From the IMG/VR virus record IMGVR_UViG_2534681674_000020, positions 1 to 36,460 of that record: a DNA stretch of 36,460 nucleotides. One strand, 5' to 3'. The notes under the pieces are model-generated. The model had not been told where the DNA came from. It searched no databases and was given only the letters and a program-made list of their open reading frames with translations. The position numbers and the translations under genes are program-made. Of this stretch, positions 623 to 8,697 are shown piece by piece. Each line of letters opens with the position of its first letter. Position 1 is the first letter of the stretch. The stretch is from a virus (taxonomy: Duplodnaviria; Heunggongvirae; Uroviricota; Caudoviricetes).

Positions 623-935
623 CTATGAATTATTATATTGTAAAGTAATCAGGTAAGATATGTTAGACAGTGAGACTATTGCCTTACAGAATTCATTATT
701 CTTATGGATCGCCTTTCTGACTGATTTCATATTGGCGGGGTAACGGGAGTTAAGTAGAATGGCTGCGGGTGCTTGAGGCTATCTGTCTCAGGCATGAACA
801 CCAAAGGCAGATAGAGAAAAGCCCCAGTTAACATTACGCGTCCTGCAAGACGCTTAACATTAATCTGAGGCCAATTTCATGCTAGACACATGTAGGTTAG
901 CCTCTTACGTGCCGAAAGGCAAGGAGAAGCAGGCT

Positions 936-1091
936 ATGAAGCAGCAAAAGGCGATGTTAATCGCCCTGATCGTCATCTGTTTAACCGTCATAGTGACGGC
1001 ACTGGTAACGAGGAAAGACCTCTGCGAGGTACGAATCCGAACCGGCCAGACGGAGGTCGCTGTCTTCACAGCTTACGAACCTGAGGAGTAA
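936..1091 (+). CDS. hok: Hok/Gef-family type I toxin (51 aa), HokD/RelF-like
   Basis: Translation MKQQKAMLIALIVICLTVIVTALVTRKDLCEVRIRTGQTEVAVFTAYEPEE matches Hok-family membrane toxins. Strong SD AAGGAGAAG at 921-929. An in-frame upstream extension from 879 gives a 70-aa mok-like frame. Confidence 0.85.
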   Translation: MKQQKAMLIALIVICLTVIVTALVTRKDLCEVRIRTGQTEVAVFTAYEPEE

Positions 1092-2967: not shown

Positions 2968-3327
2968 ATGCTCATAGATTTGGTTTTACCTTACCCGCCG
3001 ACGGTGAACACTTACTGGCGACGCCGTGGCAGCACATATTTTATCTCGGAGGAGGGAAAGCGTTATCGCCGGGCTGTGGCGCTTATTGTTCGCCAGCAGC
3101 GGCTGAAATTAAGCCTGTCCGGAAGGCTGGCGATAAAGATTATTGCAGAGCCACCGGATAAGCGCCGTCGTGATCTGGACAATATCCTGAAAGCACCGCT
3201 GGATGCGCTGACGCATGCCGGACTTCTCATAGACGACGAGCAGTTTGATGAAATCAATATTGTGCGCGGTCAGCTCGTTTCTGGTGGGCGGCTGGGCGTG
3301 AAGATTTACAAAATTGAAAGTGAGTGA
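2968..3327 (+). CDS. rusA: Holliday junction resolvase RusA
   Basis: 119-aa product with the conserved RRRDLDN core and overall collinearity with E. coli RusA. SD AAAGAGGTGA upstream. Confidence 0.85.
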   Translation: MLIDLVLPYPPTVNTYWRRRGSTYFISEEGKRYRRAVALIVRQQRLKLSLSGRLAIKIIAEPPDKRRRDLDNILKAPLDALTHAGLLIDDEQFDEINIVRGQLVSGGRLGVKIYKIESE

Positions 3328-3890
3328 GCATAAATATGATATACCCGGAAATTACAGGCAAAAGCGGTGAGCATTTACGCCTGAAAACGCTGGAAAGTGT
3401 CTGGATCCAGGGGAAACTGCGTATGTGGGGGCGTTGGTCGTATATTGGCGACGGTAAGACGGGAAATATGTTCAACCAATTACTGACCTCTAAAAAGCTG
3501 ACAAAAACGGCAATTAACGAGGCGCTCCGGAGGATGAAAAAAGCGGGTCTGGACAAACCTGAACTTGAGGCTTTTTTGCGGGATATGATCAACGGCAATC
3601 AAAAAAGCTGGCTGGCACATTGTACCGATTCAGAGGCGTTAATAATCGACAGGGTTATTGGTGAAGTACTGGCAGGTTATCCCGGGCTGCTCAATGTTCT
3701 GAGTCAGCGTTATGTGGGGCGGGGGATGACTAAGCGCAAAATGGCTGAACTGCTGAATGATGCACATCCGGAATGGAGTTTAAGAACCTGTGAAAGACGC
3801 ATTGAGCATTGGCTAAAGGTGGCAGAATTTATTTTGTACAAACCAATGGTTATGGCTTTTGGTATAGAGAAAAAAGTTATTGCTTTTTGA
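3324..3890 (+). CDS. Late-gene antitermination protein Q-like
   Basis: 188-aa ORF directly after rusA and directly before a tR'-like terminator and the late genes. Called by synteny with lambdoid phages; the Q family was not verified by motif. Start may be GTG 3324 or ATG 3336. Confidence 0.55.
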   Translation: MSINMIYPEITGKSGEHLRLKTLESVWIQGKLRMWGRWSYIGDGKTGNMFNQLLTSKKLTKTAINEALRRMKKAGLDKPELEAFLRDMINGNQKSWLAHCTDSEALIIDRVIGEVLAGYPGLLNVLSQRYVGRGMTKRKMAELLNDAHPEWSLRTCERRIEHWLKVAEFILYKPMVMAFGIEKKVIAF

Positions 3891-4113: not shown

Positions 4114-4311
4114 ATGCTAAAACAGCAGGATATGACAGAAACCGCCAGAGTGGTGTTTAATGAATTAAGCGTTACCGACCCGGCGACAGTCGGGGAGATT
4201 GCGCAGAATACTTACCTTTCACGCGAACGCTGCCAGTTAATACTGACCCAGCTTGTTATGGCGGGTCTGGCAGACTATCAGTTCGGTTGTTACAGACGCC
4301 TTCCGCAGTGA
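4114..4311 (+). CDS. Small winged-helix protein, PapI/FaeA-like (65 aa)
   Basis: ORF of 65 aa. The central segment (VTDPATVGEIAQNTYLSRERCQLILTQLVMAGL) resembles the PapI/FaeA HTH pattern by eye. Lies immediately upstream of a DNA methyltransferase. Confidence 0.45.
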   Translation: MLKQQDMTETARVVFNELSVTDPATVGEIAQNTYLSRERCQLILTQLVMAGLADYQFGCYRRLPQ

Positions 4312-4461
4312 AGGCTTTTTTATTTGTGGTAAATGGGCGGCTGGTGGGTGTTAGGGGCACCTACCAGCCATCTGCTCATGCGTTGGGTTCACAAGCAAAC
4401 CTCAGGCCCACTGCTTTGCGCAAAAGCAGAATGAGCCTATCAGAGACAGGCTTAATGATCC

Positions 4462-5538
4462 ATGCTTAATACTGTAAAAATATCCAGTTGTGAGTTAATC
4501 AACGCTGATTGCCTGGAATTTATCCAGACCTTACCGGAAAACTCTGTCGATCTGATAGTCACAGACCCGCCATACTTTAAAGTGAAGCCCGAGGGCTGGG
4601 ATAACCAGTGGAAGGGCGACGATGATTACCTGAAGTGGCTGGACCAGTGTCTGGCGCAGTTCTGGCGGGTGCTGAAACCTGCCGGAAGTCTTTACCTGTT
4701 CTGTGACCATCGCCTGGCATCTGACATTGAAATCATGATGCGTGAACGCTTCAATGTGCTGAACCATATTATCTGGGCGAAGCCGTCCGGACGCTGGAAC
4801 GGGTGCAACAAGGAAAGCCTGCGGGCGTATTTTCCGGCCACAGAACGCATTCTGTTCGCGGAACATTATCAGGGGCCGTATCGTCCGAAAGATGATGGCG
4901 ATGAGGCGAAGGGCAGGGCACTGAAACAGCATGTGATGGCCCCGCTGATTTCTTACTTTCGTGATGCGCGTGCTGCTCTTGGGATAACAGCAAAACAGAT
5001 TGCAGATGCCACAGGAAAGAAAAACATGGTGTCGCACTGGTTCAGTGCCAGTCAGTGGCAGCTACCGAACGAAAGCGATTATCTGAAATTACAGTCGCTG
5101 TTTGCCCGGGTGGCAGAAGAGAAACATCAGCGGGGAGAACTGGAAAAGTCCCATTACCAACTGGTCAGCACATACAGTGAGCTGAACCGACAGTACATGG
5201 AACTGCTGAGTGAATATAAAAATTTGCGGCGGTATTTCGGTGTGACGGTGCAGGTGCCGTACACCGATGTGTGGACGCATAAACCGGTGCAGTACTATCC
5301 AGGGAAACATCCGTGCGAAAAACCGGCAGAAATGCTGCGGCAGATAATCTGCGCGAGCAGTCGTCCGGGTGACCTGGTGGCGGATTTTTTCATGGGTTCT
5401 GGCTCAACCATAAAAGCAGCTATGGCGCTCGGGCGTCGTGCAACTGGTGTTGAACTGGAGGCAGAACGTTTTGCGCAGACCGTTAAGGAGATTAGTCACA
5501 TCCTTACATGCTCAATTGATGACGGGAAGGATGAATAA
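4462..5538 (+). CDS. Orphan DNA methyltransferase (beta-class amino-MTase; N6-adenine or N4-cytosine)
   Basis: 358-aa product with a DPPY catalytic motif near the N-terminus and an FxGxG AdoMet-binding motif (DFFMGSGST) near the C-terminus. No cognate restriction gene is visible. Confidence 0.85.
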   Translation: MLNTVKISSCELINADCLEFIQTLPENSVDLIVTDPPYFKVKPEGWDNQWKGDDDYLKWLDQCLAQFWRVLKPAGSLYLFCDHRLASDIEIMMRERFNVLNHIIWAKPSGRWNGCNKESLRAYFPATERILFAEHYQGPYRPKDDGDEAKGRALKQHVMAPLISYFRDARAALGITAKQIADATGKKNMVSHWFSASQWQLPNESDYLKLQSLFARVAEEKHQRGELEKSHYQLVSTYSELNRQYMELLSEYKNLRRYFGVTVQVPYTDVWTHKPVQYYPGKHPCEKPAEMLRQIICASSRPGDLVADFFMGSGSTIKAAMALGRRATGVELEAERFAQTVKEISHILTCSIDDGKDE

Positions 5539-6760
5539 AGATATGGTCAGTTCAGGCTGTGAAGCAAGTAGACAGATAAGGCTGCAATAAAAACTGACAA
5601 TAGTAAAATAGCTTTTTCCCAGGTAGTCATGAATACGATCTCTTAAAGCGCCCGCTGATACCAGCGGGCAATACATACTGGCATTAATGTTAAGTTCAGG
5701 GATAATTCATCGTATTTTGTGGTACGACGCTATCAATATTAATAAAAAGTATTTTTCATGTAAAATTTCTGTTTTTTTGATCTGATTCTCGTTTCCTGGG
5801 TTATGATGTTGTTGTGAACCATGCTGTTGAATGATAATGTTCGGGTATAAAATTGTTGCTGATATGTAGCGCAGTGAGCAGGTGGTATTTCTGTTGCTGA
5901 GTGTACGGATACAGTGCTTCCCTCCCTCAGCGGGGGGGCAGGTGTGCTGTGGTTTTAGAGACACCGGAAACGAGAATGATGCGGGTTTGCTGGTGCCGGG
6001 ATAGAGTCGCCGGAGGTCATGACATAGAGCAAAAAAGGAATGTGCATGCAAATACACACCTCTTCGGAGAGCTCTTCTTTATATGGATGAGCCTCAAGGT
6101 CAATAGTTTATCTGTTATGTATTCATATGTTGTTACTTATATAATCCATACGGGCATATCATCAGTACACACATACTATTATGGCATTTTATTTTTGTTT
6201 TAACTGAATTCCCGGGGCACTCTTTTTGATTTCTGATAAGGAACCAGAATTTTCTGTTAAATGGTGTCACGTTGTAAATGGTTAATGGAAGCAGCTTATT
6301 ATCCATAATCACACCTGAGTTAACAGGTGTGAGAATACTTCCGGGTGGCAGGAACACATCTGACTGATACCAGATTATCAACTTTATTTTACACCATACA
6401 GTTGAAAACGTTATTCCGCTTGATGGGCATATCACTGTGTCAATAACTATCCATTCCATCTTTTAACCTTCTCGGTACACATTGCTTTCGATTGTTTTGC
6501 TAAAAATCATAGTCAATAAATCAGTGTAACTCATTGAAAAAGATCGTCTTCTTTGTCTTCCTGGGGTTTTCTTTTCTAATTTTGTATCACTTTGGTTCAA
6601 GTTGTTTCATTTTTTTGTAATACAAATTAGCAGGATGAGCGGGAATATAAAAAAATCGGATGTTTTTGTAATGGATATTATTTTTTTGTAAAATAATGTA
6701 TTTTTATTTAAATCTCTATCAGAAAAGAATTTATTGTTCCTTTATATGGTGGAAAAGGTC

Positions 6761-8697
6761 ATGGTATTTAAACACTACGATGTGGTCAGGGCGGCGTCGC
6801 CGTCAGATCTTGCGGAAAAGCTGACACAAAAACTGAAGGAGGGGTGGCAGCCATTTGGCAGCCCGGTGGCCATCACGCCTTATACTCTGATGCAGGCCAT
6901 TGCGGCGGAAGGTGATGTCACCACACCTGTGTTGGTGAAGCCGTCGGATGGAGAAGGCACAGTAATCAGCGCCACCAGAGACCCGGAGTATTACTTTGTT
7001 GTGGTTCTGGCGGGGCAGTCAAACAGCATGGCATATGGTGAAGGCCTTCCGCTGCCGGAGACATATGACCGTCCGGACCCGCGTATTAAGCAGCTGGCGC
7101 GCCGCAGTACGGTGACACCGGGCGGTGCAGCATGCAAATATAACGACATCATTCCGGCGGACCATTGTCTGCATGATGTGCAGGACATGAGCCGCCTTAA
7201 CCATCCGAAAGCGGACCTGTCAAAGGGGCAGTACGGAACCGTGGGGCAGGGGCTGCATATCGCCAAAAAACTGCTGCCGTTTATACCGGCGAATGCGGGC
7301 ATTCTGCTGGTTCCGTGCTGTCGTGGTGGTTCAGCGTTCACCACCGGAGCTGATGGCACATACAGTGACGCGAGTGGTGCTTCGGAGAATTCAACCCGCT
7401 GGGGTGTGGACAAGCCGCTGTATAAGGACCTTATCGGTCGAACAAAAGCAGCACTGAAGAAGAACCCGAAAAATGTGCTGCTTGCCGTGGTGTGGATGCA
7501 GGGGGAATTTGATTTTGGCGGTACGCCGGCAAATCACGCAGCACAGTTTGGTGCGCTGGTTGATAAATTCCGTGCAGACCTGGCGGATATGGCAGGTCAG
7601 TGCGTCGGTGGATCTGCTGACGGTGTTCCCTGGATATGCGGGGACACGACGTATTTCTGGAAGCAGAAGAACGAATCCTCGTACCAGACGGTGTACGGCA
7701 GCTACAAAAACAAACGGAAAAGAATATCCATTTCGTACCGTTCATGACGGATGAGAACGGGGTGAATGTGCCGACGAACAAACCGGAAGAAGACCCGGAC
7801 ATTCCGGGTATCGGATATTACGGTTCGAAATGGCGTGACAGCTCAGCCACCTGGACGTCACAGGACAGGGCGAGCCATTTCAGCGCCTGGGCACGCCGCG
7901 GGATTATTTCCGACCGTCTGGCAACGGCGATTTTGCGCCATGCGGGAGGAGTGGCGCTAAACGCGGGGGCATCATCGACAGTATCAGAGGTGCGCCCGTC
8001 ATCGCCTTCCGGTGCAGAAGCCACAGGCGTCACAACACTGCTCTCTTACCTTGCCAGCGAGTCAGAGGGAAGCCTGAAAGTACAGGGATGGTCAGCCAGT
8101 GGCGGCAGGGCAGAAGTGGTCAGCGATGCGGAGGGAACCGGAGGTAAGGCAGTGAAGCTGACCAAGGAAGCCGGTAAAAGCAGCTGGGTGCTGGAGTACG
8201 CCGCGGGCAACGGTGCGGCTCTGTTACAGAAAGGGGGGCAGATTCGCTGCCGCTTTAAGGTTTCGGGAGCGCTGGCTGCGAACCAGTATGTTATGGCGTT
8301 TTACTGGCCGGTATCTTCACTGCCACAGGGCGTTGCCCTGACCGGAGACGGGGGGAATAACCTGCTGGCAGCGTTCTACATCCAGACAGATGCAAAAGAC
8401 CTGAATGTGATGTACCACAATGCGAAAGTGGCGACAAACAACCTGAAACTGGGAAGCTTTGGCGCATTTGATAACGAATGGCATGCGCTGGCTTTCCGCT
8501 TTGCCGGGAATAACAGCCTTCAGGTGACGCCGGTTATTGATGGTCAGGATGGTACACCGTTCACGCTGACGCAGTCACCGGTCAGTGCCTTTGCGGCGGA
8601 TAAACTGCATGTGACAGACATTACCAGAGGTGCGACTTACCCGGTACTGATAGACAGCATTGCGGTGGAAGTGAACAGCACAGACACTGCGGCATGA
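6761..8697 (+). pseudogene. nanS-p: Prophage sialate O-acetylesterase NanS-p-like (DUF1737 + SGNH/SASA esterase), disrupted by a frameshift
   Basis: Two overlapping ORFs (6734..7747 in frame 2, 7636..8697 in frame 1) together form one approximately 645-aa protein. N-terminus MVFKHYDVVRAASPSDLAEKL is DUF1737-like. Frame change lies within 7630-7747, probably in the A-rich tract around 7705-7716. SD GGAAAAGG before ATG 6761. Confidence 0.7.

Follow-up and report, generated by a model that had tools for sequence, protein, structure and literature searches.

An intact iraM-family gene beside a putative STnc100 relic in the moron slot of a defective lambdoid prophage

The AT-rich tract at positions 5539–6760 of the viral sequence analyzed here (IMG/VR record IMGVR_UViG_2534681674_000020; the whole stretch of 36,460 nucleotides is termed the window) contains an intact, already annotated iraM-family gene, encoding a predicted RssB anti-adaptor on the minus strand. 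We consider it highly probable that the tract as a whole represents the moron slot of a defective lambdoid prophage, in which this gene is accompanied by decayed slot furniture. A known, annotated moron gene and decayed furniture make up the tract, which is novel neither as a kind nor as a member. The initial annotation had described a strongly AT-rich interval between a methyltransferase gene and nanS-p, at the place of tRNA genes and stx in Stx phages, with only short, unconvincing open reading frames (ORFs) and no recognizable stx sequence, and had suggested a decayed cargo gene, an H-NS-silenced regulatory region or a non-coding RNA locus. All three suggestions contain an element of truth, yet none of them captures the principal feature.

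Results

Position and composition of the tract

The placement given initially is exact, as the tract runs from the methyltransferase stop codon to the nanS-p start (Table 1). Its G+C content of 37.0%, compared with 52.8% for the window, is the lowest of any 1222-bp interval in the whole window, with 0.14% of the sliding windows equally low, and the spacer from iraM to nanS-p (6460–6760) reaches 28.2%. The equivalence to the tRNA/stx position also holds, as judged from the gene orders of Stx2c phage 2851 and strain STEC299 given below. In line with the initial reading, we detected no stx remnant in the tract: tblastn with the A and B subunits of Stx1 and Stx2 returned noise (E ≥ 0.29), and blastn against phages gave matches confined to the iraM part. 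A tRNA search had been proposed at that time; run with ARAGORN, it identified zero tRNA genes in the whole window, as did Rfam, and relatives carry three. The Rfam scan, likewise proposed, left positions 5400–6900 empty at the gathering score as well as at E ≤ 10, the sole matches in the whole window being sok (767–941) and the IS3 ALIL pseudoknot (10834–10950). The prophage itself exhibits several lesions, comprising the frameshift in nanS-p, a truncation, next to an IS3 element, of the ORF that follows the holin gene, and a gpJ devoid of its N-terminus, indicating that it is defective.

Table 1 Features of the tract and its two neighbouring genes
Feature	Position	Strand	Remarks
N6/N4 DNA methyltransferase gene	4462–5538		Pfam PF01555
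Methyltransferase 3′ flank	5539–5892	+	homologous to the STEC299 pre-tRNA (Thr/Arg/Gly) leader
Perfect 8-bp G+C-rich hairpin	5650–5669	.	GCCCGCTG-ATAC-CAGCGGGC; conserved in STEC299
Decayed or strongly diverged STnc100 (Rfam RF02076) homologue	5892–6085	+	convergent with iraM
Hairpin within the putative relic	5920–5938	+	CCCTCCC-TCAGC-GGGGGGG; counterpart of STnc100 CCCCC-UGUGCG-GAGGGG
Candidate weak intrinsic terminator of iraM	6031–6065	−	A/U- and G·U-rich hairpin followed by UUUUUU
Degenerate STnc100 terminator	6060–6084	+	CTCT-TCGG-AGAG followed by CTCTTCTTTATAT
iraM-family gene, predicted RssB anti-adaptor	6133–6459	−	108 aa plus stop; RefSeq WP_001443281.1
Invariant 5′ region of iraM	6460–6537	−	no variable site in 13 distinct sequences; alignable with STEC299
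Variable AT-rich spacer from iraM to nanS-p	6538–6760	.	within the 28% G+C interval 6460–6760
nanS-p/DUF6645 sialate-esterase gene	start 6761		frameshifted

The minus-strand ORF is an intact iraM gene

The 108-residue minus-strand ORF, initially dismissed among the short and unconvincing ones, proved to be a genuine iraM gene that is already annotated. Its product scores 144.2 bits against the NCBIfam model NF007393 (IraM; PRK09919), for which the cutoff is 121 (E = 1.6e-42), with residues 1–107 aligned on profile positions 1–110 of 114, and it matches the sequence of K-12 IraM in PDB entry 8TWD_A with E = 2e-29, ungapped across residues 1–77 comprising the structured β-barrel domain. A Pfam scan of the protein yielded no family; for its homologues the database lists PF11183, the Pfam label of PmrD. 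Searching 5.8 billion proteins returned 26 homologues, nearly all named IraM. For the BLASTN comparison suggested by the initial annotation, complete E. coli genomes were searched with the tract by megablast; this gave 28 full-length matches of at least 99% identity (100% to 2013C-4974), and beneath all 28 of them the single annotated gene is iraM, designated anti-adapter protein IraM in RefSeq. Of 5426 complete E. coli genomes, 4726 have a member of the IraM family; the allele of the window is rare, being present at 99% identity or more in 29 of the 5426, where RefSeq lists it as iraM, with 10 at 80–90% identity. The protein is 55% identical to K-12 IraM over its full length and ~60% across the structured 77 residues, ~60–62% identical to a group of 111-aa proteins and ~63% to the Stx2c-phage allele, and forms a subgroup of its own with the STEC299 allele (82–84% identity).

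The reading frame is full-length and preceded by a Shine–Dalgarno-like GAAGG (6467–6471) located 7 nt before the ATG. The dN/dS ratio was 0.18 relative to the STEC299 allele, the nearest diverged one, and ~0.09–0.10 relative to that of phage 2851. We further compared 13 distinct copies, obtained from the window and from 16 contigs that a 22-mer retrieved from IMG/VR. The segment 6110–6537, including the iraM coding sequence, exhibited zero variable sites, whereas 14 SNPs plus indels were observed in 5539–6109 and 5 SNPs plus homopolymer indels in 6538–6760. The low dN/dS of 0.18 and the lack of variable sites next to variable flanks indicate that iraM is under purifying selection.

We next to this evaluated the 15 RssB-contact residues (clusters I–III and Pro66) reported for IraM (PMC10844676), of which 10 are identical to K-12 IraM and 5 conservatively replaced. 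All five cluster-I contacts are identical (I4, I6, W22, K26, I42), as are F18, W30, I61, Y62 and P66; the substitutions T13S, C14S, L75I, H63N and I64V leave clusters II and III partly changed. The N63/V64 state is common to ten of ten aligned database homologues and is also found in the STEC299 and phage 2851 alleles. Together, the full frame, the dN/dS ratio, the invariance and the contact residues point to a working protein.

The view of the tract as non-coding in essence, whether as a cargo gene in decay or as a spacer silenced by H-NS, with no functional gene in it, is thus hardly tenable. Such a view would agree with the very AT-rich composition, with the lack of tRNA genes, Rfam families and stx remnants, with the defective state of the prophage and with the genuine decay of a part of the tract, the STnc100 relic described below; it is contradicted by an ORF that exceeds the curated IraM cutoff, matches the sequence of a solved IraM structure, and combines its low dN/dS with invariance in 13 distinct copies despite variable flanks. 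The decay proposed initially concerns the STnc100 non-coding RNA gene and not the protein cargo, as iraM is intact and selected. None of the other ORFs qualified as a gene: those at 5707–6057 (−, 116 aa) and 5901–6203 (+, 100 aa) belong to no Pfam or NCBIfam family and are both disrupted by a deletion in the contig L013, those at 5512–5676 (−), 6463–6600 (−) and 5687–5785 (+) equally have no family in either collection, and the frame of the 32-aa ORF among them is not kept in STEC299.

Predicted function and partner of the protein

By homology, the protein would bind the response-regulator adaptor RssB and form a bridge from the receiver domain of RssB to its C-terminal domain, and RssB held in this manner would no longer deliver RpoS, the stress sigma factor, to the ClpXP protease. 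Expression of iraM would accordingly raise RpoS and with it the general stress response of the lysogen. This assignment of RssB binding and RpoS stabilization is a prediction from the identity to K-12 IraM given above. IraL, a homologue at a similar distance, binds RssB by a different mode and answers a different signal (PMC4045071), so that the mechanistic details of the protein studied here may differ as well.

A change of partner, by which the IraM-like protein would bind another response regulator as PmrD does, or would serve the phage instead of the host, appears very improbable. It could be accommodated by an identity to K-12 IraM of 55% and no more, by the partly substituted contacts of clusters II and III, and by the resemblance of the IraM fold to PmrD, the sole structural relative of IraM, which binds PmrA (PMC10844676) and whose Pfam label the homologues bear. 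However, the complete identity of cluster I within 10 of 15 identical contacts overall, the N63/V64 state shared by the ten aligned homologues and by the alleles adjoining STnc100 in STEC299 and phage 2851, and the score above the cutoff of an IraM-specific model all speak for RssB, which IraL, similarly distant from IraM, still binds. RssB remains the predicted partner.

Slot architecture in related prophages

In STEC299, the methylase gene is followed by tRNA-Thr/Arg/Gly, STnc100 (+), iraM (−) and an esterase gene, and in the Stx2c phage 2851 the order is Q, three tRNAs, stx2c, STnc100 (+), an unannotated iraM homologue (−) and nanS-p. In both, Rfam identifies a full-length plus-strand STnc100 that directly adjoins the 3′ side of iraM (146 bits in STEC299, 158 bits in phage 2851), and in six other phages it locates STnc100 right behind stx or the tRNAs. 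The Stx2a phage Min27 carries stx2, STnc100 (+), AsxR (−) and nanS-p, with AsxR occupying the place of iraM, matching the arrangement of 'convergent sRNAs in the moron site' reported by Tree et al. (PMC4104026). These orders suggest a slot model consisting of tRNAs, cargo, STnc100 (+), AsxR or iraM (−), and nanS-p. Two viral contigs, L013 and L017, contain an identical iraM and an intact nanS-p, and have the N6 methylase replaced by a cassette of C5-methylase, GmrSD_N and HEPN; this different left neighbour indicates that the iraM block is an independent mobile module.

For the left part of the tract, blastn aligned window positions 5480–5794 with 4942–5263 of the STEC299 locus L002 at 83% identity, and a weaker homology relates 5840–5892 to L002 5264–5316 (Smith–Waterman score of 19 compared with 11.4 ± 1.2 for shuffles, reached by 0 of 200). 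This part is the homologue of the STEC299 pre-tRNA leader, with the tRNA genes lost. The perfect hairpin located within it has a folding energy of −17.4 kcal/mol with z-scores of −2.3 on the plus and −1.9 on the minus strand. It is devoid of a U-tract on the plus strand, has no more than GCUUUAAG on the minus strand and is not flagged by a terminator scan; it may act as a weak terminator or RNA-stability element. A T-arm-like string, 'GATGCGGGTT', which we considered as a tRNA remnant, belongs to the STnc100 homology block, and ARAGORN and Rfam were negative for it.

A putative STnc100 relic convergent with iraM

At the syntenic STnc100 position, on the plus strand between cargo/tRNAs and nanS-p and convergent with the minus-strand element, we found a segment that we read as an STnc100 relic. 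A covariance model built from 8 STnc100 genes gave its best window match at 5892–6082 (+), over its full length, with 8.2 bits and an E-value of ~0.02. Within this match, 5968–6013 is identical to the STnc100 of phi367 at 35 of 46 positions, with a Smith–Waterman score of 24 compared with 10.7 ± 1.4 for dinucleotide shuffles (0 of 300); control segments in the same test were not significant. The homology of 5892–6058 is weak, as besides these 8.2 bits neither nhmmer with an STnc100 profile matched the window nor did Rfam RF02076 (gathering score 47 bits) match 5400–6900, even at E ≤ 10, genuine copies scoring 138–208 bits. Only the covariance model and pairwise Smith–Waterman comparison with shuffle controls reveal the STnc100 homology.

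In the segment the central block is still recognizable; the first hairpin is also kept, and the terminator persists as a vestige. The terminator falls within a blastn alignment of 6059–6800 with L002 6231–6995, where the STnc100 of L002 ends at 6257; its stem comprises 4 bp compared with 8 bp (GCCCCTCT...AGGGGC) in the relatives, and it is not called by the terminator scan. The alignment to the model shows deletions or gaps at the closing stem GCAUGGUG/CACCAUGC and at the CCGGG hairpin (CCGGG-AGGCA-CCCGG) of STnc100, and both invariant blocks, GCATGGTGAAT and CACCGGGAGGCACCCGGCACCATGCA, are interrupted. The fold of −57.8 kcal/mol is not better than that of shuffled sequences (z = +0.22), whereas two genuine copies yield z-scores of −3.44 and −3.46. 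Furthermore, the G-run of the first hairpin (5932–5938) varies from 6 to 11 G across the 13 distinct copies and is missing from L013 and L017, owing to a deletion of ~53–59 bp at 5878–5937. It is the broken blocks, the short terminator stem, the shuffle-like fold, the variable G-run and this deletion on which the assignment as a relic is based: the sRNA gene has decayed.

The alternative, a functional sRNA, either strongly diverged and of the STnc100/PasD type or altogether new, that converges on iraM and is possibly antisense to its 3′ end, is in our judgment unlikely. Position and strand match STnc100, and PasD, considered here by its description, provides the precedent of an STnc100 relative undetectable by BLAST, located directly upstream of an esterase gene (preprint 10.64898/2026.05.13.724894). 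The segment is moreover at least 98% identical in 29 genomes and 16 viral contigs, although such identity between copies reflects recent common descent and not constraint, and a 17-nt inverted repeat (5785–5801/5961–5977) lends the fold of 5770–5990 a z-score of −2.4. Against a functional RNA stand the structural losses described above, namely the broken invariant blocks, the 4-bp terminator stem, the uncalled intrinsic terminator and the shuffle-like fold of the segment itself, as well as the presence of variant sites here and none in iraM among the 13 distinct copies, with a variable G-run and a 53–59-bp deletion in two contigs. We thus keep the relic as the preferred reading, and the non-coding RNA locus suggested initially stands for the relatives, whose slot contains STnc100 and tRNAs, but not for the window copy, which fails every structural test.

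The segment 5795–6058 (264 bp) is present in 29 of 5426 E. coli genomes, once in each and always in the same context. This single copy number and single context led us to reject a MITE, as suggested by the 17-nt inverted repeat. A wider origin was sought in GTDB species genomes by exact 22-mer, yielding one chance match in an unrelated membrane-protein gene of a Bulleidia MAG. The sRNAs known from this slot (AsxR, AgvB, Esr41 and intact STnc100) had no Rfam match in the window; for AsxR/AgvB (RF02703/RF02702) the positive control, Min27 AsxR, scored 88 bits.

Control regions of iraM

The invariant 5′ region contains a −10-like TATGAT at 6506–6511 (−), which is TATACT in STEC299, and lacks a good −35 element. 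We place a putative promoter at this TATGAT; a consensus scan gave no convincing sigma-70 promoter near iraM, its sole minus-strand upstream match being 185 nt from the ATG. The adjoining spacer up to nanS-p aligns poorly with STEC299, phage 2851 and K-12, and contains at 6609–6700 three direct repeats of the TTTTTTTGTAA type with a T-run of polymorphic length. The spacer probably includes more of the sequence that controls iraM, and H-NS is likely to target it. The tract shows the AT-richness of xenogeneic DNA, with 37% G+C overall and 28% in 6460–6760, compared with 52.8% in the window. For K-12 iraM, H-NS regulation is the subject of a 2012 paper by Battesti et al. (cited in PMC4428439), and analogy with this case together with the composition makes H-NS silencing at 6460–6760 plausible. 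The PhoP-box-like motif (T/G)GTTTA-N5-(T/G)GTTTA, allowing at most 2 mismatches, occurs 0 times in 6460–6760 and twice upstream of K-12 iraM, counts that are no higher than chance. Since the upstream region of the gene cannot be aligned with that of K-12 iraM, the inducing signal probably differs.

On the downstream side, the candidate terminator of iraM lies ~70–100 nt after the stop codon, and the fold of 6030–6135 (−) amounts to −21.5 kcal/mol with a z-score of −2.2. The consensus terminator scan misses this hairpin because its stem is too poor in G–C pairs. The iraM gene points against the phage late operon and would form an independent transcription unit.

Discussion

Taken together, the outcome that the initial annotation had set against its own proposal, a common conserved element or just what is left of some known gene, has essentially come about. 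The importance of the tract amounts to little beyond correct annotation. The iraM allele has an upstream region that points to another inducing signal. Nevertheless, the locus offers a case of an sRNA gene decaying beside a retained protein moron, and a practical lesson: where the stx slot of a lambdoid prophage shows an AT-rich gap, the opposite strand should be read before the gap is taken as empty, as small reverse-oriented morons such as iraM sit there. Extra IraM paralogues borne on prophages may also raise the RpoS-dependent acid and stress tolerance of food-borne STEC.

A more speculative scheme, to which we would attach little probability, is that the divergent prophage IraM is wired to a signal other than Mg2+/PhoP and is shut off by convergent late transcription upon prophage activation. 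The shut-off would follow from iraM being antisense to the late operon, which depends on Q (3324–3890) and from which the decayed STnc100 terminator would no longer shield it. If true, RpoS stability would be coupled to the state of the prophage in non-O157 STEC/EPEC lineages (O121, O111, O103).

Comparison with known systems

IraM of K-12 (YcgW/ElbA) is an RssB anti-adaptor induced by Mg2+ starvation through PhoP. The protein of the window belongs to the same family by model and sequence, has a similar length (108 compared with 107 aa), conserves the RssB-contact clusters and shares a C-terminal tail in which four Cys are invariant and a PYG motif occurs. Both genes are AT-rich, horizontally acquired and adjoin prophage DNA, the K-12 gene lying beside e14. 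In contrast to K-12 iraM, with which it shares 55% identity and no alignable upstream region, the window gene resides in a lambdoid prophage, where it occupies the moron slot of the late operon and is convergent to the STnc100 relic.

A further parallel is given by IraL of UPEC CFT073, a diverged homologue 58.9% identical to IraM and encoded on the potB island, which despite a different promoter and genomic island still acts on RssB (PMC4045071). This precedent suggests that alleles at such a distance keep the RssB target while their regulation can change. Unlike IraL, the window protein forms its own subgroup with the STEC299 allele, at ~60–62% identity to the 111-aa group, which probably includes IraL. 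The iraM homologues of the Stx2c phages (2851, 1717 and others) and of the Stx2a phage Stx2_EH2201, where the gene is annotated, occupy the same slot on the minus strand; the Stx2c-phage proteins differ by an identity of ~63%, and those phages keep tRNAs, stx and an intact STnc100.

With STnc100 (RF02076), the window segment shares position, strand, central block, first hairpin and a vestigial terminator, but it stays below the Rfam gathering score and lacks the closing stem, the CCGGG-AGGCA-CCCGG hairpin, a stable terminator and a thermodynamic signal. Finally, the window differs from slots bearing AsxR or AgvB in that neither is present, and iraM stands where Min27 has AsxR.

Invariant cysteines in the carboxy-terminal tail of IraM

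In the alignment of IraM family proteins the cysteines C81, C92, C97 and C102 were invariant in all 11 aligned members, as was the ICPYG motif of the carboxy-terminal tail (residues 81–105 of the window protein). Together, these four cysteines and the motif suggest, at the sequence level, that the tail could form a metal-binding site or a disulfide knot. This tail is missing from the crystal structure of K-12 IraM and had been described as less conserved. A Pfam-A scan of the protein encoded at 6133–6459 yielded no family at E ≤ 0.01, whereas PF11183 is precomputed in the protein database for all of its homologues, a mismatch that may be due to the model version or the threshold.

Homopolymer variation and neighbouring genes

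Across near-identical copies, the G-run at 5932–5938 ranged from 6 to 11 G and the T-runs at 6609–6616 and 6680–6687 differed in length by 1–3, which looks like simple slippage. The variable G-run is part of a hairpin arm in the decayed STnc100 homologue.

For L013 and L017, two IMG/VR contigs carrying an identical iraM, homology to the window begins at window position 5517, and to the left of the iraM module a defence-like cassette takes the place of the window's N6/N4 methylase. The nanS-p/DUF6645 gene is unbroken in L013 (657 aa), unlike the frameshifted window copy. Between Q and the methylase gene, a small ORF displayed weak TrmB-like helix-turn-helix similarity (17 bits, under the cutoff), and this ORF together with the hairpin at its end may represent the phage tR' region. 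In the RefSeq region identical to the hok/sok locus of the window, hokD is annotated.

Features of the window and of the related contigs
Feature	Coordinates	Strand	Details
hok/sok type I toxin-antitoxin locus	767–941	+	sok by Rfam, 118 bits; early/nin region of prophage
Small ORF, 65 aa	4114–4311	+	between Q (DUF1133 type, 3324–3890) and methylase gene
Strong terminator-like hairpin, then TTTTTTATTT	4298–4315		at end of 65-aa ORF
nanS-p/DUF6645 esterase gene, frameshifted	6761–8697		split into ORFs 6734..7747 and 7636..8697
IS3-family element with programmed frameshift	about 10550–11770		ALIL pseudoknot at 10834–10950
Cassette: GmrSD_N (DUF262) protein, MAE_28990-type HEPN protein, C5 cytosine methylase	L013 7973–10831; also L017

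Prophage defect and the K-12 iraM neighbourhood

The IS3-family element is inserted after the holin gene, adjoining a truncated ORF and an amino-terminally truncated gpJ; thus, the lysis-to-tail part has been deleted and the prophage is defective. In K-12 (region L004 3681–5108), iraM lies just beyond the annotated e14 boundary and adjoins ymgK, ymgL and ycgX, the latter encoding a DUF1398 protein. A DUF1398 gene is also found downstream of the lysis genes in the prophage of the related strain STEC299, and the sharing of this gene is a hint that iraM in K-12, too, sits in a remnant of a lambdoid late region.
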